Origin: a virus
Lineage: Duplodnaviria; Caudoviricetes
Direction: 5' to 3' (one strand)
DNA length: 30,214 bases
Virus record (IMG/VR): IMGVR_UViG_3300016484_000158
Location: 1 to 30,214 of that record
Shown: piece by piece, positions 512 through 29,761 of the stretch
How positions within the stretch are numbered: position 1 is the stretch's first letter
Layout: each line of letters begins with the position of its first letter
Notes under the pieces: generated by a model
What the model was told of the DNA's origin: nothing
What the model saw: the letters and a program-made list of their open reading frames with translations, nothing else
Databases searched by the model: none
Program-made: the position numbers and the translations under genes

Positions 512-625
512 TTAGATTAAATCGTTACCGTTATAGTCTGAGTGTTCCTTCGACATTTTGTCGATTCCTTTAATCCACAATACGCCAAGAAGCGCTGTGC
601 AAATGAAAATAATTGCGATTGTCAT
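512..625 (-). CDS. 37-aa single-TM peptide
   Basis: MTIAIIFICTALLGVLWIKGIDKMSKEHSDYNGNDLI. ATG at 625 follows an A-rich leader (AAACCTAAAAAATCAATT). Confidence 0.65.
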   Translation of the reverse strand: MTIAIIFICTALLGVLWIKGIDKMSKEHSDYNGNDLI

Positions 626-641
626 AATTGATTTTTTAGGT

Positions 642-1640
642 TTATAAAATTTGACCTTCGTGTATTCGAAGATTCTTGACGCTAAAGTAACCATTTTTTC
701 CCAATTCCACAATAGCAAAACCGTGATTATATTTTGAATATGGATTGTAGTCTGGAGACAACTCGCTCAAACAACCAACACCCCAACAGGTTATAAACTT
801 TCCATTCGCGTCGCGTTCGTTGTGTTCCGCTGTTTGGTGGTGATGTCCGCACAATGAAGAAACTTTCGTCTTTAAGAACAAGCCACGCGCCACGTTTACT
901 GAAGGAAGGAATTGTTTTCCGAACTCGTGTCCGTGAAAGATTGAAAGTTTACCAATATTTAGCTTGCTCTTTCCGTCAATCCACGTTATATTGTGTTTAT
1001 CTAAATGACACAAAGAAGCGAAGTCGAAAGCGTCAATGTCGAATAATTCAGGCGCTTTAATTCGCATATATCTCCAATATCTTTCTTCGTGGTTTCCTTC
1101 TTTATAATAGATATGAGCTGAAGGAAATTGTTTTCGTAACGTGTCAACGAATTGACGCATTGCGTATAACTCATCTTTGAATTTACGTTTGCGTGGATCT
1201 TTGACAAAGTCTGAAATCATGTGGCAGTCTAACGCGTCGCCATTTAAAATAACCGCGTCACACCCTTGACGAATACCTTCATTAATTGCAACGCTCAACG
1301 CTTCATTATCTTGATAAGGAATGTGAATATCGGACAGGATTAAAAACTTTGAACCTTTCAACTCGACGTGTTTACGTTTCTTCGCATACGACTTCGGAAG
1401 TGCGTAAGGGTTGGAAGGTCTTTGTTTAGTGTCTATCAATTCTTTTTGTGTATTAAATTTACGACTTTTTTCACCCATCTTACCACGAACGCGACGAACG
1501 TAATTCCTAGCGTGTTCTTGTGTTAAAAACGCTTCTGGATATTCGGAGAATAGTTTAGTCGCCAAAGAATGAGACGGCGCTTCGGGAAACTTACTGCAAA
1601 TTTCCGCTGCTATTTTCCGAGCTTCCGTTTGTCTTGCCAT
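642..1640 (-). CDS. Calcineurin-like metallophosphoesterase with N-terminal helical extension
   Basis: Motifs SDIH, NGDALD, GNHE, HGH and GHHH. Likely start is MARQTE at 1640. Confidence 0.9.
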   Translation of the reverse strand: MARQTEARKIAAEICSKFPEAPSHSLATKLFSEYPEAFLTQEHARNYVRRVRGKMGEKSRKFNTQKELIDTKQRPSNPYALPKSYAKKRKHVELKGSKFLILSDIHIPYQDNEALSVAINEGIRQGCDAVILNGDALDCHMISDFVKDPRKRKFKDELYAMRQFVDTLRKQFPSAHIYYKEGNHEERYWRYMRIKAPELFDIDAFDFASLCHLDKHNITWIDGKSKLNIGKLSIFHGHEFGKQFLPSVNVARGLFLKTKVSSLCGHHHQTAEHNERDANGKFITCWGVGCLSELSPDYNPYSKYNHGFAIVELGKNGYFSVKNLRIHEGQIL

Positions 1641-5361: not shown

Positions 5362-5392
5362 GCACAGAGGGGAAATGCTCCCCTCTATGTGT
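5362..5392 (-). terminator. Stem-loop downstream of tail tube gene (processing site or weak terminator)
   Basis: AGAGGGGA/TCCCCTCT stem with no strong U-tract. Confidence 0.55.
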
Positions 5393-5930: not shown

Positions 5931-5974
5931 GCACAAAAGAGGGGTGGTTTTTATGCCACCACCTCTCTATGTGC
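5931..5974 (-). terminator. Stem-loop downstream of capsid gene
   Basis: Minus strand reads GCACATAGAGAGGTGGTGG-loop-ACCACCCCTCTTTTGTGC, an extended imperfect stem. Confidence 0.6.
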
Positions 5975-6910: not shown

Positions 6911-7486
6911 TTATTTGTTTAAGTGAAAAAAGAAGCGCTCTTCTGCCGACATTTTAGCGTATGGCTTAGAAGGTGCACTTTGTTTGTTTTGTTTTACTTC
7001 TTTGATAGAAGGAGCAGCAGGTTGTGCGCTCAACTTCTCAACATTTGAAGAAAGTTCTGCGTTTGCTTTTTTCATTTCAGCAAGTTCGCTTTCAAGTTTA
7101 GCAACCAAAGACAAAAGACCTTCAACCTCTGCGTTGAATGTTTCTTCTTTTGTTTCTTCAACAGATTGCTCTGTTTCTTCAACTGTTACTTCAACCTTTG
7201 GAGCTTCTTCTTCCATTGGTTTAATCTCGGTTACAACACCGTCAGCAACAACAACAATAACTGATTCAGCGGTCTTATACTCACCGTCCATAACAGCAAT
7301 CTCGTTGCCTTCTGCGTCTTTGGTGAATACACGAACACCTGCAGCCCATGCGTCGCTATCTGTGTAGATGCTTGTTCCGTCCTCTAAAATCGCCTCAACC
7401 ATTTGCTTCACCTCAACTACTTCTTCAGCAGAAAGGCTAACATTGTGTTTAGCGAATAGAGCGTTTACTTTTTCGCGTAAGTTCAT
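6911..7486 (-). CDS. Capsid scaffolding protein
   Basis: Very acidic, with a LEDGT...DGEY..V.DGVV motif and C-terminal coiled coil. Likely start is MNLREK at 7486. Confidence 0.7.
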   Translation of the reverse strand: MNLREKVNALFAKHNVSLSAEEVVEVKQMVEAILEDGTSIYTDSDAWAAGVRVFTKDAEGNEIAVMDGEYKTAESVIVVVADGVVTEIKPMEEEAPKVEVTVEETEQSVEETKEETFNAEVEGLLSLVAKLESELAEMKKANAELSSNVEKLSAQPAAPSIKEVKQNKQSAPSKPYAKMSAEERFFFHLNK

Positions 7487-7529
7487 ATAAGTGTTTATTA
7501 AATGTTTAGTTCCTAAATAGAAAAGAACG

Positions 7530-7537
7530 TATATTTG
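7530..7537 (+). promoter_or_regulatory. Bacteroidota sigma70 -7 box driving an antisense transcript
   Basis: TATATTTG matches TAnnTTTG and lies 47 nt upstream of a plus-strand terminator stem. Confidence 0.6.
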
Positions 7538-7540
7538 TTT

Positions 7541-7614
7541 CATAATTGATTCTTTTCATAGTTTCTATTTTGATTTTAGGTTTGACGGAGGGAGTGATTA
7601 CCCTCCGTTTTTTT
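7541..7614 (+). ncRNA. Putative ~75-nt trans-acting small RNA complementary to phage translation-initiation regions
   Basis: Promoter, U-rich body and intrinsic terminator; 10-13-nt blocks are complementary to leaders of the genes starting at 625, 22871, 23230, 23903 and 26139. Confidence 0.65.
7585..7614 (+). terminator. Intrinsic terminator oriented against the late operon
   Basis: ACGGAGGG-AGTGATTA-CCCTCCGT followed by TTTTTT on the plus strand. Confidence 0.8.
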
Positions 7615-7789
7615 AACCCAAAGTGTCAAGAATAGCGTTCAATACTTTAATTTCGTCCTCTGTCAATCCGTACGTCTTAAACCCCATTTTACCGCCCTCA
7701 TTCGTTATCTTCGTTAGCGCTAAAAGAAACAGGTTTGCATCGTCGTTGAACAATTCGACTTTAAGAAACCCCCCTGCTTCAATGTTCAT
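7613..7789 (-). CDS. 58-aa hypothetical protein (missed by ORF track)
   Basis: MNIEAGGFLKVELFNDDANLFLLALTKITNEGGKMGFKTYGLTEDEIKVLNAILDTLG; starts 3 nt after the protease stop. Confidence 0.7.
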   Translation of the reverse strand: MNIEAGGFLKVELFNDDANLFLLALTKITNEGGKMGFKTYGLTEDEIKVLNAILDTLG

Positions 7790-10965: not shown

Positions 10966-13570
10966 TGCTTATAATTGTTATTGTATCCCCTAAACCTGTG
11001 AATGTTACACTTCCGCTACCTTCAACCGTTTCGCCTGTATACGCTTGAACTGTTACGTTATTCGATGCAGAACTTTTTTGAATAATAAATTCACGTCCTG
11101 CGGTCGTCGTTGCAGAAGGTAAATAGATAGTTATATTATTGCTCGTTGTGTCTGCGAAAATCATTCGGTCGAAGTTTGTTACAACGTAGTCAGTCGTTAT
11201 CGTCTTAACTGGCTGTGAAACACCTGCGCTAAATGTAACAGGCGCACCGAAGCGTGTCGGTGCTAACGAAGGCGCTTGTTGAGTAATGAAAGAACGCGTT
11301 CCGTTGTTTGGTATCGAGTAACAATTATTCTTTGCGCTGTTCCAATAGTAGCCAAAGCGACGACAGCAATCTTCAGTAACGGTTGCAGGATCTCCGTTCG
11401 GGGTTTCCCAATTCAACGTTTGGTTGAGGTTAGCCGAAACAGGAATAATATCGCAGTCGTTGTCTATGTCAAGTAAGCGAATCAATTTCACTTTCGTTAC
11501 GTCTTGTTCACCTACTACATAACCTTCGATGTCGAGAACTCTCCACCAACTATCCACTATCCAAATCTTGTCGCTCCATTGAAAAGTAAAGATATCGTTC
11601 AAAGTAAGAGCGAACATTCCTTCCATAATTCGCGCTTGTCCGTCGTATAATTCGCGGTAGTAATTGCGCCACCAACGATTATATAAATTGTCGTAAGGGT
11701 TTGCAATGATAGTATGCGGTGGTATTTCGGGAGCAAAGTTTAGGTCGCTATCAGTAACCGTTGCGTTCATTGTCGAATAGTTATTTAAACACTTAACCGC
11801 TGTAACAATTACGCTGTCAGAAACTTCGTCGTACATATTCACAAAGAAGTCAGCGAAGTAGTAAAGGATGCGCGGTTTAGGTTGTACGAATTGCCCTTCT
11901 GCGTTGATAAACTTCGGAACAACAACGTCTGTATTCTCAACAGGAGCGGAAGGTGTTGACGCAAAAGCTAACTCTACTTTTTCTTCGCCTGTTGCGAACT
12001 CGTTGATTACTTCGAAATCGTTCTCCGTTACTTCGTAGCGTCCGTAAATGCGTCCATTGTCTTTATAGACTGAATTAAAATAGTCTCCGTCTTCGCTATA
12101 TGTAAACGTGAACTTTGCCTTCTGCATATCAACTGTTGGATAATACGCAATGTCTTTAGATAGGTCAAGTTTCGAAGTCCAGTCCAAAGTATTTCCGCTT
12201 CCAATGTATTCAACAAGTGGTTCAATTCTTAAAGTGTTTGGAAGTGTGCGGTCGGGAACGAAGGCAAGGTTGAACATCTTTTGAATTGACGTAATGAAGT
12301 CTATTTGCTTCATATCTGGAGCGTTGAATTCCATTACGCAAGTGTCGCCTGTTAAATTTGTTCCAACGCTCACTAATTCAACACCTGTTCCAAATTGATT
12401 TACGCCACCATTTCCAAACAAATCAACATCCCAAGTAAATGAAGGCGCAGTTGAATTTTGTGGTAATATTTGCAACTTAAATTTAACCGTATCACCTCCG
12501 TTGAAAGAGTATGTTTGGGTTATATTCATATAAAACAAATAACTTGATTGAAGTAATTCGTATTGGTAAGTATAAACATCGTTAACATAAACAACAATGC
12601 GAACTGGATAAGTTCCAAAGTCTTGTCCGTTCAAAGTATTTACACGCCCATTTGCTGCAATGTTAAACGAATATTGTGCTGAATAAGGAACAGTAAAAAC
12701 ACCACTACTCCAGTTTGCACCTGCGTCTTCGTATTCTGTAAATTGAGTATATAAATTGTAAATGTTTGAACTTGGGCCAAATGTTAATCCGTTAACATCG
12801 GAAGCCAAAGCTAAATTTGCAGCGTTGTCATTTAGTCCAAGTGTTGAGTTCAAATATTGTCCGTTAACAAAAGGAACGTACACGTTTTCAAGACAACCGC
12901 TTAAATTGTTGCTTGTCCATTGTACCCCTGCATCTTGAAGTATTTGGTCGAATAGATACAATGCTTTAACCGCAGGCGTCAAGTGTCCAACATAAAGCGG
13001 TTTATAGTTTTCAAAAGTTGTATCTGAAGGTGAATAGATAGGTTGTCCTTCCGTGTTGTATGTCGTTAAATTAAACTTATCACATAGTGTTAAAATAGTG
13101 TGTTCGTTAGGTGGTGTTTCAACGTTAGCGTGTAGTAAGTCGTAATCCAAGTCTCCTGCAACAATCGATTCAATATCGCGAAGTTTCTTCTCGTTCAAAA
13201 GTCTTGCAAGGTTTGGAACTTCACCAAAGAACACAACCTCAAACTCAAACAACTTACCACTTTGCCAGTACAATTTTTTAACTTGAACGTGTCCTGTTGC
13301 AATGGGAATAGTGTTGACGGTTAGCGTCGCTTCAACCTTCTTTCTAAAATCAAACCAACCATTGAAGTTAACGTTAAAGATAGCACCGAAGAAATCGACA
13401 TTTGTTTTACTCGCAGGAATACGAAACTCACGCGAGTAATTCCCTACCGAACTGAAGTCTGTAAGGTCTGTGAACTTGTAGTTGAGGTGCATTTTCTCAT
13501 TCTCGTACAAGTCGATTGTCGCTGCGTTTCCGTCGTAGTCGGTAAGCGTTAGTATTACTTCGTTTATCAT
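10931..13570 (-). CDS. Tail hub / large minor tail protein
   Basis: 879 aa with IDLY, YSREFRIPASKTN, FITSIQKMFNL, DWTSKLD and LYNRWWRNY, plus a C-terminal fibre-type beta module (DTTSNNITIYLP). Confidence 0.75.
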   Translation of the reverse strand: MINEVILTLTDYDGNAATIDLYENEKMHLNYKFTDLTDFSSVGNYSREFRIPASKTNVDFFGAIFNVNFNGWFDFRKKVEATLTVNTIPIATGHVQVKKLYWQSGKLFEFEVVFFGEVPNLARLLNEKKLRDIESIVAGDLDYDLLHANVETPPNEHTILTLCDKFNLTTYNTEGQPIYSPSDTTFENYKPLYVGHLTPAVKALYLFDQILQDAGVQWTSNNLSGCLENVYVPFVNGQYLNSTLGLNDNAANLALASDVNGLTFGPSSNIYNLYTQFTEYEDAGANWSSGVFTVPYSAQYSFNIAANGRVNTLNGQDFGTYPVRIVVYVNDVYTYQYELLQSSYLFYMNITQTYSFNGGDTVKFKLQILPQNSTAPSFTWDVDLFGNGGVNQFGTGVELVSVGTNLTGDTCVMEFNAPDMKQIDFITSIQKMFNLAFVPDRTLPNTLRIEPLVEYIGSGNTLDWTSKLDLSKDIAYYPTVDMQKAKFTFTYSEDGDYFNSVYKDNGRIYGRYEVTENDFEVINEFATGEEKVELAFASTPSAPVENTDVVVPKFINAEGQFVQPKPRILYYFADFFVNMYDEVSDSVIVTAVKCLNNYSTMNATVTDSDLNFAPEIPPHTIIANPYDNLYNRWWRNYYRELYDGQARIMEGMFALTLNDIFTFQWSDKIWIVDSWWRVLDIEGYVVGEQDVTKVKLIRLLDIDNDCDIIPVSANLNQTLNWETPNGDPATVTEDCCRRFGYYWNSAKNNCYSIPNNGTRSFITQQAPSLAPTRFGAPVTFSAGVSQPVKTITTDYVVTNFDRMIFADTTSNNITIYLPSATTTAGREFIIQKSSASNNVTVQAYTGETVEGSGSVTFTGLGDTITIISNGSDFKGTSTK

Positions 13571-14808: not shown

Positions 14809-15348
14809 TTAAATGTCGTTTAATTGATTCTCTATTGTTGCTGAAAAGTCTTTTCCGTATGCTTCCACAATCTTCGCTTCGTATTCGTCCCAAATGTTCT
14901 CCATTGCGTAGTCGAACGCTTTCCAGCCCTTGATTCCGTCGCGTCCTATCTTGCGAGCAATTAAGAAGGCAACTTGTTTCTTGAGTGATTCAGTCGGCTT
15001 CTTGAACTTTCCTGTTTCCTTATCTCGCAACTTGATAGGTTTAATTCGCATCCAGTCTAAAATTGCGCTCACAGGTGGCGGTTTCGCTCCTGCTCTACGT
15101 CCATCTTCACGAGCGAGAAAATACTTCGACGCTTTCCCTTTCGCATAGACTGAAACGTTTATTTCGCTTCCCTTAATCTTCAACCTATACTTCAAAGACT
15201 TTTCAAGCGTACCACTTGCAACCGCGTTTGTAAAGTTGCGTCCAACCTTTCGCTTCATACGATAGTCGGACTGCATCAATTCAACGAAACGTTTAGCCAT
15301 TTCGTTGACCACAGCGAAGAAGTTGGGTGCGCTCTGTTCGTTAGCCAT
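14809..15348 (-). CDS. Neck / tail-completion protein (HK97 gp10-like)
   Basis: Basic protein with ASGTLEKSL, EDGR...PP..AI..W and AFLIARKI...GIK motifs. Confidence 0.7.
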   Translation of the reverse strand: MANEQSAPNFFAVVNEMAKRFVELMQSDYRMKRKVGRNFTNAVASGTLEKSLKYRLKIKGSEINVSVYAKGKASKYFLAREDGRRAGAKPPPVSAILDWMRIKPIKLRDKETGKFKKPTESLKKQVAFLIARKIGRDGIKGWKAFDYAMENIWDEYEAKIVEAYGKDFSATIENQLNDI

Positions 15349-21182: not shown

Positions 21183-21616
21183 TCGATATTCACTTCAACG
21201 TCAGCCATCGATTCAAGAAACGTCTTGATGTCTTTCTTCACACACGCGCCACACGTCGAACGCTCGTTATAAGCGCCTGTTGCCTTGTCTTTGAAGGTAT
21301 AGAACTTACTCAAGTCTATTGCGTCAATCCTGCCCTTCTTTTGAGCGTCAAGTAAGAATGTCTTGAACTTTATTTGTTCTTCAAGTGTCAACGTTCCGTC
21401 CCACTTACTCGCAGGACAAGATGCGAAAGATAGTTTAGCCTTAACCGGCATAACGCAGCCACATAACTTAATTGTTTTGCGTTTGAACTTTACTTCGATT
21501 TCTTCTTCTGCTCCTACGATTAAAGAACCGCACGACTGCGTTGTTGCTTCGAAGAATTTACAAGCGCGGCAGATATCTAACCTGCGCTTATATTCATTGT
21601 GTTTTACGAATAACAT
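21179..21616 (-). CDS. Cys-rich putative Zn-binding protein
   Basis: RRLDICRAC, CG, LCGC, CP..KW and CGAC motifs. Confidence 0.75.
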   Translation of the reverse strand: MLFVKHNEYKRRLDICRACKFFEATTQSCGSLIVGAEEEIEVKFKRKTIKLCGCVMPVKAKLSFASCPASKWDGTLTLEEQIKFKTFLLDAQKKGRIDAIDLSKFYTFKDKATGAYNERSTCGACVKKDIKTFLESMADVEVNID

Positions 21617-22097
21617 TTGCTCTAATTTTTTGTTTTATATTATCTATTGTCCTGTAAAGAAAAGGCATCGGTATCCCTGTTTGTTTTGAGAGTTCACGAT
21701 AGGTAAAATCTTCGAGAATATATTCTTGAAAGATAAGACGTTCAAACTCACTCAATCGACTAATTAGAATATCCAGCTGCTCGTTTGTCATTCGATGACC
21801 TAACCAAGTCTTGTCAACTTCGTGCGCGTAATCTTTGAAGTCGCGTCGGTTTCTATTCCACGCTATCGTTTGTTTGTAGAACGGTGACGTTGGACTGTTC
21901 ACCGACAAATACATCACGCGAATAAGATAGAACTCGAAGTCTCCTGTGTCAATTAAGTTTTCGATATGCTTCGAACCAAACATAGAAAGTAAAGAGTCGT
22001 GCAAGAGATCCTCGTAAAAAGGTTCTTTACGCGCGATGTTATACGCAAGTTCTTTGAACTTTTTGTAGTGTCCTTCTATGTAGTGGTCAAGTGTCAA
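21594..22097 (-). CDS. ECF-like RNA polymerase sigma factor
   Basis: Region-2-like EDLLHD..L and FEFYLIRV; region-4 HTH LSEFERLIF...TYRELSKQTGIP...YRTI. Confidence 0.75.
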   Translation of the reverse strand: MTLDHYIEGHYKKFKELAYNIARKEPFYEDLLHDSLLSMFGSKHIENLIDTGDFEFYLIRVMYLSVNSPTSPFYKQTIAWNRNRRDFKDYAHEVDKTWLGHRMTNEQLDILISRLSEFERLIFQEYILEDFTYRELSKQTGIPMPFLYRTIDNIKQKIRANVIRKTQ

Positions 22098-22543: not shown

Positions 22544-22574
22544 TTGCGTGTCCTAAATGTTTAGCATATATTTG
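22544..22574 (+). promoter_or_regulatory. Major early promoter (Bacteroidota sigma70)
   Basis: TTG-N20-TATATTTG with upstream A/T tracts, at the strand switch. Confidence 0.75.
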
Positions 22575-22810: not shown

Positions 22811-22860
22811 GGGATGCGACTGACCAACGCATATTTAACTAAAATCAAATATAAACAAAA
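22811..22860 (+). repeat. Hairpin-plus-leader element, copy 1
   Basis: GGG ATGCG-ACTGACCAA-CGCAT ATTTAACTAAAATCAAATATAAACAAAA. Confidence 0.8.
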
Positions 22861-22870
22861 CAAAACAACG

Positions 22871-23176
22871 ATGAAAACAAGAGAATTGATTAAAGCTGGA
22901 ATGGTTAACAATGGAACAAAAGTAATTGTTAACAAAGGTGCGGAATATGAATGCGGAAAGCATAGTGACCATAGAACTGTGGGTTATGTAACTGAACCAT
23001 TTACTGCAACTTGCATAAGTTCACCTAAAATTTATTTAAATTCTAACGGAATCCAAGATTTTGAATATGCTCATTTAACTTGCGTTGATGATAGCGGTGT
23101 GGAATATAGTATAAATGTTGGTCAGTGCAAATACTCGCGCGTTGATAGTCAAGATGACGTTACAATTTTAATTTAA
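22871..23176 (+). CDS. Early hypothetical protein (cassette between the two repeats)
   Basis: The start MKTRELIK at 22871 follows the A-rich leader. Confidence 0.7.
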   Translation: MKTRELIKAGMVNNGTKVIVNKGAEYECGKHSDHRTVGYVTEPFTATCISSPKIYLNSNGIQDFEYAHLTCVDDSGVEYSINVGQCKYSRVDSQDDVTILI

Positions 23177-23184
23177 TTAAACGA

Positions 23185-23229
23185 GGGGCGCGACTCACCA
23201 ACGCGCATTAACTAAAATCAAATAAACAA
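23185..23229 (+). repeat. Hairpin-plus-leader element, copy 2
   Basis: GGG GCGCG-ACTCACCAA-CGCGC ATTAACTAAAATCAAATAAACAA, with compensatory stem changes versus copy 1. Confidence 0.8.
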
Positions 23230-23343
23230 ATGAAAAAAACACTACTCTTTATCGCGATGTTATTCGCAGGAATGTTAATCGCAGGAACGATTGACGAACA
23301 AACAAGACAATTAGAACAACAACCAAATCACACAACAAAATGA
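23230..23343 (+). CDS. 37-aa signal/TM peptide (missed by ORF track)
   Basis: MKKTLLFIAMLFAGMLIAGTIDEQTRQLEQQPNHTTK. Confidence 0.7.
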   Translation: MKKTLLFIAMLFAGMLIAGTIDEQTRQLEQQPNHTTK

Positions 23344-23753: not shown

Positions 23754-23902
23754 CTTTATTTGCGTTTATTCTTCAGCTAACGCGTACAACCTAACGCACA
23801 ACGAGATAAGCGCGAACATTGAAAAATGTCAAAAACTTTCAGAAGCGCGTTGGAACGACAACTTAATCGAGTATATTTGCAACAACTAAAATCAAAATCA
23901 TT

Positions 23903-24193
23903 ATGTATTGTCCTAAAATCACTTATTGTTTTTCAGCTTCTGACTTGAAAGAAATAAACGAACAAATCAAACTAATCGCAACGAACTACGAAGAAACCGA
24001 AGGCGGTTGGTTCAACACCTCTGAAAGCGACAACGTAAAGTTTATAGACGGCGCTGGAAAGTCTTTTGTTCTTTGCGTACGCGGTCAGTTCTTTAGAAAG
24101 AACGAAGGCGAATACGACCTTGAACACGTTATGTTAATGTCAGACGGAATAACGTTGCATTTTGAAACCCGTTTATTCGACGAAAAATTGTAA
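23903..24193 (+). CDS. Hypothetical protein
   Basis: ATG with leader CTAAAATCAAAATCATT. Confidence 0.7.
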   Translation: MYCPKITYCFSASDLKEINEQIKLIATNYEETEGGWFNTSESDNVKFIDGAGKSFVLCVRGQFFRKNEGEYDLEHVMLMSDGITLHFETRLFDEKL

Positions 24194-25601: not shown

Positions 25602-26127
25602 CGAACAGATAAGACAAGAGATAGCTGAAATGATACCTCTTAGATATATGGAAAGATTCGAACTACTTTGGACAATGATTATTCCCAAGTACGAAAGATT
25701 GACAGCCGACCAAATTAAACAACAGCAAGAAATGGAGAACGAAAGAGAAATGTTCTGGAGCGCACTTGAAGATGTAACGTGTTCGGTGTTAGGTGTTCCT
25801 TCACAAGCTTTATATTCAACGACAAGAAAGCGAGACATAGTAACAGCAAGACAAATAATTTTCTTTCTTGTGCGCCCTTGCTATTTGCTTTCACTTCAAA
25901 ACGTAGGAGACCGCTACAAGAAAGACCACGCTACAATCCTGCACGGAATTAATCAAGCAAGTGCACAGGTTGAGTGGGATAGACAATATAGAGCCAACGT
26001 TGAACGCATTTGTTATCTATTAAATGAGATAGGTTATGCTAAACCAATGGTATTTTTTAATAAATTTGTCGAACATATCGAATACAAGAAAGAGATAGCA
26101 CTTAAAAAGAAATCTAAAATCAAATAA
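25594..26127 (+). CDS. Protein with DnaA C-terminal (domain IV) DNA-binding domain
   Basis: S.TRKRDIVTARQI..FL...SLQNVG..Y.KDHATILHG matches the DnaA signature. Confidence 0.85.
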   Translation: MTNEQIRQEIAEMIPLRYMERFELLWTMIIPKYERLTADQIKQQQEMENEREMFWSALEDVTCSVLGVPSQALYSTTRKRDIVTARQIIFFLVRPCYLLSLQNVGDRYKKDHATILHGINQASAQVEWDRQYRANVERICYLLNEIGYAKPMVFFNKFVEHIEYKKEIALKKKSKIK

Positions 26128-26138
26128 ATCAAACAACT

Positions 26139-26342
26139 ATGAAAAGCGAACTTACATTCTGTCCGAACTGCGACAAACAACTTTTAGGCGAACGCGTTGA
26201 CTTCGTCTTGCAAGACCAACAACTTGAAGACTGGGATTCGGCTTATGAACTAATCGATTCAGAAGGTGAAATAAATCTTTGTTCCGACTGCTACGAATGG
26301 GACAGCGCAGACGACGACGCCAAAGGTGAGGGTTGGGACTAA
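26139..26342 (+). CDS. Small acidic Zn-finger protein
   Basis: CPNC...CSDC. Confidence 0.7.
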   Translation: MKSELTFCPNCDKQLLGERVDFVLQDQQLEDWDSAYELIDSEGEINLCSDCYEWDSADDDAKGEGWD

Positions 26343-26357
26343 CTAAAAAATAATAAG

Positions 26358-26792
26358 ATGCTTATATTACAACTCAAAAGACGAATCGAGATTCTTGAAG
26401 CAAAAGTTCAAGAACAAGAACAAAAGATAAACGAGATACTTAACAAGTTGTCCGAAAGGACAACAAGTCCTTCCCTCGTTCCTGCTGAAAAGAAGAAAGC
26501 ATTTCAGAAGCCAACAGTCGTTGAAATATACGACTACGCTTGTGAACGATTAAACAACGAAGACGCGCTTAAATTTACCGAGAAATTTCATGCACACTAC
26601 GAAGCGAATGGTTGGAAGGTTGGACGCAATGCAATGAAAGACTGGAAGGCTGCGGTTCGTAAGTGGGACTTGAGTACCTTTGACACTTCAAAACAAAACC
26701 TACAAAATCAAACTAAAATTAAGAATGGAAAATTCGATTCAGACGCTGCGCAACGCATCTATGCAGACGCTCACAACTACACAAAGGATTGA
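26358..26792 (+). CDS. Replication-initiator C-terminal-domain protein
   Basis: FQKPTVVEI..Y...F..HYEANGWKVGRNAMKDWKAAVRKW, with an N-terminal coiled coil. Confidence 0.7.
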   Translation: MLILQLKRRIEILEAKVQEQEQKINEILNKLSERTTSPSLVPAEKKKAFQKPTVVEIYDYACERLNNEDALKFTEKFHAHYEANGWKVGRNAMKDWKAAVRKWDLSTFDTSKQNLQNQTKIKNGKFDSDAAQRIYADAHNYTKD

Positions 26793-27480
26793 TCGTGCAG
26801 AACGCGAAAGCGCGTTTGTTGCCGATTACGACCTACCGACATTCGTAAAGTTATGCTCAAAGGTTTGCGCTATGTATGGCATAGCGTTACCAGAGGCGCA
26901 GTTACTTCAAATGCTTCACGAATTTATAGTGAAACACTTTCGTTGGGTTACGTTTGAACACTTCAACCTTGCGTTCGAAATGAACGCAGCGAATGAGTTA
27001 GACAAAAAGTGTGAACACTACGGAGCGTTGAGCGTGTCGTTTATAGGCGACGTGTTTACGGCTTACAAACCGCACCGAGACAAAATCAATTTACAAATTC
27101 AAAGAGAGATAGCTGAAGCAATAGAGCAGAAAGCGAAAGAAATAAAGGAAAATGAAATGGCAGTAAACGACGACAGCTGGCGCAAGATGCTCAAGGAAGA
27201 CATTGAGAGTTATAAAGAAGGTAAATTCATTACGTTAGAACTTCGCGGTGTATCAATGATGCGGTGGTTGGAAGAGGCGAAGTACATTGACGCTTCCACG
27301 TTCACGGACGACGAATACAAGACCTGCAAAGCGAAGGCGCGTTTCGTTGTCTTCCAAGAACAGCAACTTTCAAAAGGTATTGTTGAACGAATGAGCGACC
27401 GCAAACGTCAGCTATTGAAAGAATCGTTGCACTTTGAAGGAATGAGACAACTGTATAAACTTTATTTGAGTAAGCAATGA
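26725..27480 (+). CDS. Putative replication accessory / helicase-loader-like protein
   Basis: Follows the initiator-like gene; F.LAFEM....ELD....HYG.LS..FIGDV..AY. Likely start MENSIQ at 26725. Confidence 0.5.
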   Translation: MENSIQTLRNASMQTLTTTQRIDRAERESAFVADYDLPTFVKLCSKVCAMYGIALPEAQLLQMLHEFIVKHFRWVTFEHFNLAFEMNAANELDKKCEHYGALSVSFIGDVFTAYKPHRDKINLQIQREIAEAIEQKAKEIKENEMAVNDDSWRKMLKEDIESYKEGKFITLELRGVSMMRWLEEAKYIDASTFTDDEYKTCKAKARFVVFQEQQLSKGIVERMSDRKRQLLKESLHFEGMRQLYKLYLSKQ

Positions 27481-28457
27481 ATGAAATTGATTTATTTGGA
27501 AATACTAAAGAAGATATTATAAATGATTACTTTTTATATTGGAAAAAAAAGGGTTATCCAAATTACAAATCTGAAAATTATAATAAGAAAAAAGAACTTG
27601 ATGCATTAATATGTTTTAATGAAAATACTATTTTTAAAAATAAAATACTAAAACAAACTATGCATAGCTGCGGTTTTTTATGGACATATTTTCCGCATTG
27701 GATAGACGTAAAATATAATAATCAAAAAACTATTAGAGAACTTTGGGAAGATGATAAAAAACTTAAAGAGTTAATAGAAAAAACTTATGAATATGAAAAA
27801 AAATTTGGGAATGGTTTTATATCAGAAAATAGACTAAGACAAAATTCAAAAGTATATTTAAGTAAACAAAGTGTAAGTAATTTTAGACCAACTGTTTCAA
27901 AATTTATTTATAATAATTTTGGAAATAATGGTGTTGTTTGGGATATGTCTTGCGGGTGGGGTGGTCGTTTATTTGGGTTTTTATCATCAAATTGCAAAAC
28001 TTATATTGGAACAGAACCTTGTGTAAAAACATTTAAAGGGTTAACCAATTTAAAAAATGATTTTAATATAAAAGAAGTTTTTTTGTATAATAAAGGAAGT
28101 GAAGACTATAATCCAAAAGAAAATTCATTAGATTTATGTTTTACATCACCTCCTTATTTTGATACTGAAAAATATAGTGAAGAGGAGACACAATCTTATA
28201 TAAAATTTAATACAAAAAACACTTGGTTAAGTAATTTTTATGAAAAAACAATTTATAATTGTTATATAGGTTTAAAAAAAGGTGGTTATATGATTATCAA
28301 TATATCAAATACACCAAAACATAAATGGCTTGAAGAAGAAACAATAAAAATATCTAATCAAATTGGTTTTATTTTAACAGATATTTTTAAGTTAGAATTA
28401 TCTTCTATTAGCGGTAAAGGTAAAAAATATGAACCTATTTTTATTTTTCAAAAATGA
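27477..28457 (+). CDS. DNA amino-methyltransferase (N4-C/N6-A), AT-rich insertion
   Basis: SAM-binding DMSCGWGGRL, catalytic FTSPPY and SNFRP motifs. Confidence 0.85.
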   Translation: MNEIDLFGNTKEDIINDYFLYWKKKGYPNYKSENYNKKKELDALICFNENTIFKNKILKQTMHSCGFLWTYFPHWIDVKYNNQKTIRELWEDDKKLKELIEKTYEYEKKFGNGFISENRLRQNSKVYLSKQSVSNFRPTVSKFIYNNFGNNGVVWDMSCGWGGRLFGFLSSNCKTYIGTEPCVKTFKGLTNLKNDFNIKEVFLYNKGSEDYNPKENSLDLCFTSPPYFDTEKYSEEETQSYIKFNTKNTWLSNFYEKTIYNCYIGLKKGGYMIINISNTPKHKWLEEETIKISNQIGFILTDIFKLELSSISGKGKKYEPIFIFQK

Positions 28458-29761
28458 CACCATACAAACCCGAATACCTACCGCGTCAGATTGAAGCACT
28501 TAACTACCTTGCTACTGATAGCGAAGTTGAACAAATACTTTACGGTGGCGCTGCTGGTGGTGGGAAAACGAAGTTCGGTTGTATGTGGCAAATACAACGA
28601 CGTCTAAAGTACGCAGGAACGCGTTCGTTAATTGGTCGAAGTAAGTTAGACACGCTTAAAAAGACAACGTTAAATACATTCTTTGAGACGGCGAAAGAGT
28701 TCGGTCTTGTGGCTGATAAACATTACGTCTACAATGGACAGACTAACGTGATTAAGTTCTTCAACGGAAGCGAAATTGTACTCAAAGACCTGTTCGCTTA
28801 CCCTTCAAATCCCAACTGGGACAGTTTGGGCAGCTTAGAAATCACAGACTACTTCATTGACGAGGTATCCGAAGTAACAGAAAAGGCGGTCAACATTGTT
28901 CACTCACGTTGCCGTTATAAGTTGAATGAGTTCGGTCTTATTCCAAAAGGATTCTTGTCCTGCAACCCTTCAAAAGGTTGGTTGTATAATGAGTTCTATG
29001 TAAAGAATAACAGGAACGAACTACCGAAACACCGCGCTTTTGTACAAGCGTTACCACAAGATAACCCATTCCTTCCTGTTGCTTATATTGAATCGTTGCG
29101 TCGCCTTCCAGAATACGACCGCAAACGTCTGCTCGAAGGCAATTGGGAGTTCGACGACGACAGCAATAAACTATTCTCAACGGATAACTTGCTTCGAATG
29201 TTCCGCAACGAACTACTTGAAGGAAAGAAATACATCACAGCCGACATAGCGCGTTTCGGAAAAGATAGAACGATTATCTGCGTTTGGAATGGGTTAACGC
29301 TTATTGAACTAATTGAACTCAATCGTGCAGCGTTGGACGAAATCGTGAACAAGATTCGTTTGATATGTCAGCAACATTCGATTCTATTGCAAGACGTAGT
29401 GTGCGACGAAGACGGAGTAGGTGGTGGTGTGGTTGACTTCTTGAAGTGTCGAGGGTTCGTCAATGGATCTAAACCAAAACAACCGCAATATCAAAATCTC
29501 AAAAGCGAATGTTATTATAAATTGGCTCAATATGTAGAGGAGAATCGGCTCACTATTTTAGTCAATGGAAAGAAGGAGCAAATCGTTCGTGAATTAGAAA
29601 TGATAAAGCGCCACCGCGCAGACGTGGAAGGAAAGTTAATGGTCACACCGAAGGACGTTATTAAGAACCGCGAAGGTATTTCTCCAGACGTTGCCGACGC
29701 TATCATGATGAGAATGTATTTCGAACTCAATCCTTCTTATGGACAGTATGTTGTCGGGTAA
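28454..29761 (+). CDS. terL: Terminase large subunit
   Basis: Walker A YGGAAGGGKT, Walker B FIDE, coupling motif SCNP, and nuclease ADIARFGKD...PDVADA. Confidence 0.95.
   Translation: MTPYKPEYLPRQIEALNYLATDSEVEQILYGGAAGGGKTKFGCMWQIQRRLKYAGTRSLIGRSKLDTLKKTTLNTFFETAKEFGLVADKHYVYNGQTNVIKFFNGSEIVLKDLFAYPSNPNWDSLGSLEITDYFIDEVSEVTEKAVNIVHSRCRYKLNEFGLIPKGFLSCNPSKGWLYNEFYVKNNRNELPKHRAFVQALPQDNPFLPVAYIESLRRLPEYDRKRLLEGNWEFDDDSNKLFSTDNLLRMFRNELLEGKKYITADIARFGKDRTIICVWNGLTLIELIELNRAALDEIVNKIRLICQQHSILLQDVVCDEDGVGGGVVDFLKCRGFVNGSKPKQPQYQNLKSECYYKLAQYVEENRLTILVNGKKEQIVRELEMIKRHRADVEGKLMVTPKDVIKNREGISPDVADAIMMRMYFELNPSYGQYVVG

Follow-up and report, generated by a model that had tools for sequence, protein, structure and literature searches.

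The window, that is, the whole stretch of DNA analysed here, comprises 30,214 bases of the virus record IMGVR_UViG_3300016484_000158, which is 97% complete. The minus strand carries the portal, protease, tape-measure and other late genes, and the plus strand carries a small-gene block, replication-type genes and the terminase. The label "early" stands for the plus strand together with the TAnnTTTG boxes at 22567 and 23872 and thus denotes a deduced timing; early and late starts were called with a home-made gene caller that favours A-rich starts. In clades A-C and in the clade F genome G036, the gene of the terminase large subunit (28454-29761 in the window) closes the early-strand block and is oriented against the other head genes. 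A DNA methylase gene of low GC content (27477-28457, about 24-33%) is inserted before the terminase and is present in 1 of 16 genomes, this one. On the minus strand, GC-rich hairpins at about 5935-5965 and 5365-5390 are found in the intervals that separate the capsid candidate and the two late genes following it. Their U tail is weak or absent, they are conserved in the relatives G005 and G007, and they are possible partial terminators or processing stems setting the capsid stoichiometry. The cultured phages closest by protein are Cellulophaga phi10:1, Flavobacterium 11b (terminase, 48%) and Nonlabens P12024 (capsid candidate, 28%), which points to a Bacteroidota host for these aquatic phages. 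A DNA-level search of the cultured-phage collection with the window gave no match, and the P0125 scan yielded no relative.

A compact unit on the plus strand lies antisense to its two neighbours, a 58-aa late gene (7613-7789) and a scaffold-like head gene (ATG at 7486), in the space between them. The coordinates that the earlier note gave for its box, body and U-tailed terminator, and for every match it listed, were exact. The unit has the following features:

7505..7509, plus strand: TTTAG, a possible -33-like element with a putative role, 20 nt upstream of the -7 box
7530..7537, plus strand: Bacteroidota primary-sigma -7 box TATATTTG (consensus from PMC9723704); the same box stands at the early promoters at 22567 and 23872
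7542..7614, plus strand: predicted small RNA of 73 nt with +1 at A7542 (71-75 nt in relatives)
7552..7563, plus strand: anti-start block, a 12-nt complement of 26135-26146, with the anti-AUG (CAU) at 7557-7559
7567..7583, plus strand: anti-leader block, complement of the CTAAAATCAAA early-leader motif by exact matches, with GATTTT in 46/46 distinct units
7584..7614, plus strand: intrinsic-terminator-like hairpin (7584-7609) of 8-9 bp with an 8-nt loop, followed by a T run giving the U tail

The -7 box of Bacteroidota spans -12 to -5 in the cited part of PMC9723704, which places the +1 of the RNA at A7542. The centroid fold of the predicted RNA leaves its U-rich body unpaired. Eight RNA runs, all as Logan contigs, have small word shares with the window (0.07-0.22). 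Contigs of six runs, from related strains, cover the stretch but are devoid of strand, ends and level, and so speak neither for nor against a transcript. The 8-nt terminator loop (7593-7600) is nearly fixed in clade A, with two main variants. Its complement resembles the sequence directly following the early -7 boxes at the 23903 and 26725 homologues, a likeness that may be due to chance.

Comparisons of the 80 related loci found through the scaffold protein showed the whole unit in 77, the remaining three being cut by contig ends. Among 46 distinct clade-A units the box reads TATA (31), TACA (8), TAGA (5) or TAAA (2), each followed by TTTG, and clade B varies at both free box positions. The +1 is a purine and the -1 is C in 46/46 of these units, and TTCAT of the anti-start block is kept in 42/46. 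The hairpin stem occurs in clade A with three cores whose changes are compensatory, and the T run after it has 7-10 T on the antisense side, compared with 1-2 T among 8 nt on the late side. The -33-like element reads TTTG or TTTA across clade A and is not conserved in clades B and C. The box and the U-tailed hairpin are retained in the more distant clades B, C, E and F, where the stems are unrelated. These lineages include clade B (L111-L121) and clade C (L149-L153), with scaffold identities of about 61% and about 47%, respectively, and the further distant loci L315 and L318/G036.

A scan of both strands for the box followed by a U-tailed hairpin found this unit and no other in 19 of 20 genomes, and the both-strand scan of the genome G039 found none. 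More distant loci were also examined in the 110 nt upstream of the scaffold start (70 of 104 loci, the rest belonging to clades already analysed or being cut at a contig end). The box is absent in 63 of these 70; the other seven are four clade-A loci, L315 and L318, and one locus with no start. A strict scan for the box plus terminator found no unit in phages 11b and P12024L. In the locus L148 (1-233), the antisense box is followed at once by a short hairpin with no anti-leader body between them, which may represent a reduced or an ancestral form of the unit. The unit thus has its own promoter, a single-stranded seed and an intrinsic terminator, all of them predicted from the sequence and all conserved, and the predicted RNA is very probably made.

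The strand opposite the box carries a likely late promoter and an open extension of the scaffold-like gene, and the earlier note had missed that the box overlaps both. The late-strand features are:

6911..7486, minus strand: scaffold-like head gene, named from its position between the protease and the capsid candidate; no PHROG hit
7487..7543, minus strand: extension of 19 codons before the scaffold-like ATG, open in the same frame, as seen in the clade-A comparison; a possible alternative start on read-through RNA
7515..7542, minus strand: likely late (phage-sigma) promoter with a -35-like TGAAAC (7542-7537), 16 nt and a -10-like CTATTT (7520-7515); putative function
7613..7789, minus strand: 58-aa late gene from gene calling; its stop codon and the last bases of the terminator T run overlap
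21594..22097, minus strand: phage sigma-factor-like gene (phrog_1740, E=6.7e-09; Sigma70_r4_2 below cutoff, E=0.005), a candidate reader of the late promoter

The neighbouring gene at 7793-8689 matches head maturation protease families. A GAAAC/GAAAT-type box, 16 nt and a CTAT/CCAC-type box precede the scaffold start whether or not a lineage has the unit. This spacing resembles that of alternative-sigma promoters, and the GAAAC/CTAT arrangement was therefore read as a late promoter. A search for the motif at other late genes found no recurring copies, so that the call is based solely on its position at the scaffold homologue. The late -35-like box covers bases -5 to +1 of the antisense promoter, and the two promoters stand back to back. 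The overlapping late promoter could account for part of the conservation of the antisense box and +1 in clades A-C. However, in L315 and L318 the antisense box is intact 30-37 nt farther from the scaffold ATG, apart from the late promoter, indicating that the box is kept for itself.

This uncoupling bears on a reading in which there is no important antisense RNA and the locus is simply the late-strand leader of an upstream start plus the late promoter, the hairpin serving as an mRNA stability or processing stem or as protection from stray antisense transcription. In clades A, C and F the body, read on the late strand, does resemble a strong leader followed by an ATG, and other late intergenic hairpins lacking a strong tail occur in the window. 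However, in addition to persisting apart from the late promoter, the antisense box is kept although its free bases switch the encoded residue from Ile to Asn, and each genome has a single unit made up of box, body and U-tail. The leader-like block of clade B has no ATG in register and stands behind a two-way terminator; the clade-B hairpin has a T run also on the late side, so that late-strand RNA would mostly stop before the body. A leader without an antisense RNA is thus an improbable account of the locus.

The 57-nt extension is stop-free in the scaffold frame in 57/57 distinct clade-A segments, in which the other two frames contain stops in 46/57 and 57/57. It contains an in-frame start codon, ATG in 55 segments and GTG in 2, and is also open in 11/11 clade-B loci. 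The open frame is the case that the earlier note itself had named as speaking against its proposal, and it has to be taken seriously. The ATG at the 7543 position is seen only where the ATG at the 7559 position is lost or out of frame. These observations, together with the overlap of the two promoters, would suit a gate acting in cis, in which the antisense promoter competes with the late promoter and the RNA pairs perfectly with read-through late mRNA, blocking the start at 7559 or 7543 or triggering cleavage, so that the head genes stay off until late. P22 sar and lambda aQ, as described in the cited passages of PMC12197685, provide precedents. However, the extension is broken in clade C, which keeps the box, body and terminator despite the broken frame, and in L315 and L318 the upstream ORF ends short of the scaffold. 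The variation of the extension is also not codon-like (entropy by codon position of 0.56/0.48/0.62; five codons without any synonymous change among 48 distinct cores). Such a gate is an unlikely main function, though the least unlikely of the alternatives considered here. A conserved small ORF starting at 7559 was rejected, since its frame and length vary among the relatives and its ATG is lost in 4/57 segments.

The body of the predicted RNA matches several initiation regions elsewhere in the window. The predicted target sites are:

23880..23921, plus strand: start region of gene 23903-24193 (short leader plus first codons), which follows a TATATTTG box of its own (23872-23879); 13-nt and 10-nt matches
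26114..26146, plus strand: leader and start of the CxxC..CxxC gene 26139-26342; -25.5 kcal/mol, the best duplex in the window
26690..26744, plus strand: leader of the gene that starts at 26725 (251 aa); -23.0 kcal/mol, absent from the earlier note
22839..22849, plus strand: site upstream of gene 22871-23176, repeat copy 1; 11-nt match
23212..23222, plus strand: site upstream of the 37-aa hydrophobic gene at 23230, repeat copy 2; 11-nt match
622..643, minus strand: site at the TM-peptide gene 625-512 (ATG 625-623), an accessory gene with identity blocks to the body; weak as a conserved target

Besides the 12-nt pairing of the anti-start block, there are 11-nt complements of positions 7569-7579 at 26114-26124, 22839-22849 and 23212-23222, a 13-nt complement of 7567-7579 at 23886-23898 and a 10-nt complement of 7571-7580 at 23912-23921. 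Two 11-nt matches lie outside the early leaders, one on the non-coding strand of a late gene (13344-13354) and one upstream of a late gene (14821-14831); neither was mentioned in the earlier note. The homologue of the CxxC..CxxC gene 26139 is the top-ranked partner in 7/13 clade-A genomes, and the best partners that recur in clade A are the homologues of 26139, 26725, 23903 and 23526. The matches at 22839 and 23212 both lie in copies of one ~36-nt direct repeat and are thus not independent. The copies of this repeat (22816-22852 and 23190-23225) flank gene 22871-23176 and each ends in the early-leader motif; the repeat is possibly a recombination scar of an accessory gene cassette. In G007, five small early-strand accessory genes at about 28,290-29,240 (oriented) share a near-identical 16-nt leader just before the ATG, which may represent a second leader tag or a cassette array.

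The identity blocks at the TM-peptide gene are exact (7540-7551 to 622-633, 12 nt; 7574-7583 to 634-643, 10 nt). However, the +1 at 7542 reduces the first block to 10 nt, and pairing with the 22 contiguous target nt described in the earlier note requires a ~22-nt loop-out in the RNA (duplex of -17.9 kcal/mol). The gene family is present in 2/16 genomes, and the TM-peptide gene is not supported as a conserved target. The other hydrophobic product, a 37-aa MKK-hydrophobic peptide encoded at 23230-23343, is kept in 15/16 clade-A records and also in G036 and G039, and had no Pfam or PHROG match.

That two short hydrophobic ORFs are among the window matches had suggested a multi-target type-I-antitoxin-like or carrier-state RNA that silences toxic membrane peptides in a persistent infection, and a promoter of a class read by the host would let such an RNA work without phage proteins. 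Besides the rarity of the 625 gene family, it counts against this role that G039 has the 23230 homologue although the scan found no unit there, and that in most clade-A genomes the leader of this homologue differs from the body motif. The candidate peptide genes lie 7 and 16 kb from the unit rather than in fixed linkage to one adjacent or overlapping toxin gene. No integrase or repressor match was found among the 26 and 24 proteins scanned, and a search of 185,579 prokaryote genomes with the capsid candidate gave 54 pattern matches, none of which was confirmed as a relative. A role of this kind therefore appears very improbable.

Comparisons with dinucleotide shuffles were made in 13 complete clade-A genomes, G013-G015 having been dropped since the unit was cut off or marker genes were missing. 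At a length of at least 10 nt, the body matches 44/238 early starts versus 9.3 expected, and 11/387 late starts versus 11.4 expected. The window alone gives a modest excess, at 10 nt or more (4/18 early starts vs. 0.84 in shuffles, p=0.039) and at 11 nt or more (4/17 vs. 0.31, p=0.009); the strength of the match excess comes from the relatives, not from the window alone. Most pairings are A-U stretches of 10-13 nt, and duplexes with own early starts have a median energy of only -14.2 kcal/mol. Sharing of 10-mers with other leaders is as frequent for ordinary early leaders as for the body, so that the matches show membership in the leader family and not which strand works. The 10-mer sharing of the body, being no higher than that of the top ordinary leaders, accords also with a late-strand leader that has no antisense partner. 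Thus, the complementarity to several distant initiation regions exceeds composition, but not the similarity of early leaders to one another.

Covariation between the RNA and its targets was found between lineages but not within clade A, where the RNA fits its own genome no better than that of a sister (p=0.20 overall) and 1/10 families, that of 23903, marginally fits its own genome better (p=0.05). The early leaders of clade B use AAACAAAAAACA, and the clade-B body is its complement over up to 14 nt. Those of clade C use AAAATCAAAAATCAA, which the clade-C body matches over up to 15 nt, and those of G036 use ACCAATAAA, matched by its own body. In clades B and F, the anti-leader block is replaced by such lineage-matched blocks. 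The cross-lineage comparison was made in 18 genomes with one gene caller, using the fractions of starts matched at 12 or 11 nt. At 12 nt, clade-B bodies match 0.13-0.15 of the B early starts, 0.004 of those of A and 0.009 of those of C, and clade-A bodies match 0.06 of the A early starts and 0.01 of those of B. Clade-C bodies match 0.22 of the C early starts at 12 nt and 0.13 of the B early starts at 11 nt, and the bodies and leaders of A and C cross-match. In G036, 5/16 of its own early starts are matched at 9 nt versus 0.51 in shuffles (p=0.002), and the bodies of other clades match 0.02-0.06 of the G036 early starts. Across the 18 genomes, own-clade late starts are not matched by the bodies, and late leaders used as queries give 0.006-0.020 at 11 nt. 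The per-genome excess reaches p<=0.05 in 10/18 genomes only, and the cross-lineage signal draws on three B, two C and one F genomes; the three leader styles (A/C, B and F) correspond to about two independent changes.

The lineage matching weighs against both accounts that place the function on the late strand. An RNA acting in cis needs no particular sequence, yet the body tracks the early-leader motif of each lineage, and late leaders do not follow this motif. For a late-strand leader without an important antisense RNA, it is likewise adverse that the early motif is not carried by late leaders. The conservation of the unit and the lineage matching support part of the proposal of the earlier note, namely a predicted plus-strand RNA directed against a motif common to the leaders of the phage's own early genes, but not the TM-peptide gene as a conserved target or a role as an antitoxin.

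The same comparisons bear on partners outside the phage, namely host mRNAs, for example those of defence genes, or a titrated RNA-binding protein (bS1 or a chaperone), with the likeness to leaders being a by-product. The host proxy was a gut Parabacteroides record, which is other than the true host; the record NZ_OY725752.1 (L388/L389), which provides the proxy gene starts, is filed as a plasmid, yet carries dnaA and ribosomal protein genes and is chromosome-like. The body is U-rich and unstructured, as would suit such partners, and the anti-start block fits common MK starts, with 6/81 proxy Bacteroidota genes matched at 10 nt or more and 14% of the proxy genes giving duplexes of <= -18 kcal/mol. 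However, at 11 nt or more the body matches 1/81 Parabacteroides genes, and the clade-A mean against these genes is 0.005 compared with about 0.11 of own early starts; the genes of two cultured phages give 1/58 and 2/65. The full two-block complement occurs in three places among 185,579 genomes, none of them titled Bacteroidota, and a protein sponge would have no need to track phage leader styles. Host mRNAs or a titrated protein are thus quite unlikely as the main partners, slightly less so than a late-strand leader on its own.

The anatomy of the unit, its conservation and its lineage-matched complementarity to early leaders are all read from sequence, and the reading that we prefer on these grounds, with a probability of about 0.6, is that the conserved unit produces a ~73-nt trans-acting RNA that pairs with the phage's own early leaders and starts and damps their translation. 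In the cited passages of PMC6847099, Bacteroidota ribosomes initiate on A-rich leaders without SD pairing, and adenines at -3, -6, -12 and -13 promote initiation in F. johnsoniae. FopS and GibS, as described in the cited parts of PMC11697453 and PMC7366714, repress translation by pairing at SD-less Bacteroidota starts. The phage RNA would be started by the host primary-sigma RNA polymerase from a promoter of the same class as those of the early operons, so that its synthesis would begin with infection and continue on every newly replicated genome. A burst of early proteins would end once enough of the RNA, protected by its hairpin, has built up to cover the A-rich, SD-less initiation regions of the early genes. 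Late leaders, which are without the C-containing motif, would largely escape. The predicted outcome is a delayed brake (an incoherent feed-forward timer) on the early and replication genes, which might also hold back a related phage that superinfects. Through its back-to-back overlap, the late promoter would tie the output of the RNA to the early/late switch. If the late sigma occluded the antisense promoter, less RNA would be made late, and the brake would then depend on existing RNA and on genome copy number. In a more tentative extension, to which we give slightly less than even odds, Bacteroidota phages mark the SD-less leaders of a whole temporal class with a shared tag, and one small RNA, placed back to back with the late head promoter, reads the tag and shuts the class. 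Early-to-late timing and the braking of superinfection would then be achieved by RNA only, with tag and reader co-evolving from lineage to lineage.

Comparisons with known systems showed partial likenesses. FopS (RF04319) and GibS of B. thetaiotaomicron likewise block SD-less initiation regions by pairing but, in the cited parts of PMC11697453 and PMC7366714, they are chromosomal, multicopy and aimed at host polysaccharide-utilisation genes, whereas the phage unit is single-copy, phage-encoded, antisense in the head cluster and matched to its own early leaders. Membership in FopS was rejected (17.9 bits, E=2.1 vs. a gathering threshold of 56 bits), as were FopS-like multicopy paralogues, since there is a single match in its own genome and one unit per genome in 19/20. 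An Rfam scan of the window gave nothing at the gathering level and six weak matches, all far below threshold. Judged from these comparisons, the conserved element is real and, in its predicted mode, resembles FopS and GibS without being a FopS member.

P22 sar, lambda OOP and aQ are also short phage antisense RNAs that tune their own programme, and sar blocks translation initiation. As presented in the cited passages of PMC12197685 and PMC5415839, each has one overlapping target gene, in temperate coliphages or P22, unlike the phage unit, which has several distant predicted targets with a common leader motif. SviR of the Vibrio cholerae satellite PLE is likewise an intergenic small RNA of a mobile element with a conserved promoter, seed and terminator that pairs near the 5' UTRs of several of its own element's operons (10.1101/2022.04.08.487710). 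SviR differs in being 210 nt long, induced by the helper phage, equipped with two seeds (one against the helper phage) and active in an SD-type host, and the cited part of that source describes no shared leader tag of a temporal class. Searches of the open-licence PMC and bioRxiv literature and the first half of a 2025 phage-sRNA review gave no such RNA in Bacteroidota phages; uncharacterised sRNAs catalogued with that review could be relevant here.

T4 RegA is a protein translational repressor that damps a set of early mRNAs at their initiation regions. The phage unit would exert a similar multi-target early damping, but by RNA pairing rather than by a protein. To our knowledge, early-gene turn-off in small phages without their own polymerase is poorly known outside the model coliphages. 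If the proposed reading is true, one phage RNA that reads a leader tag specific to its lineage would time a gene class compactly and without the need for a protein. The RNA/leader pairs of clades A, B and F should then be orthogonal, which offers a ready test of specificity, and the design would suggest multi-gene silencing tools for use in Bacteroidota.
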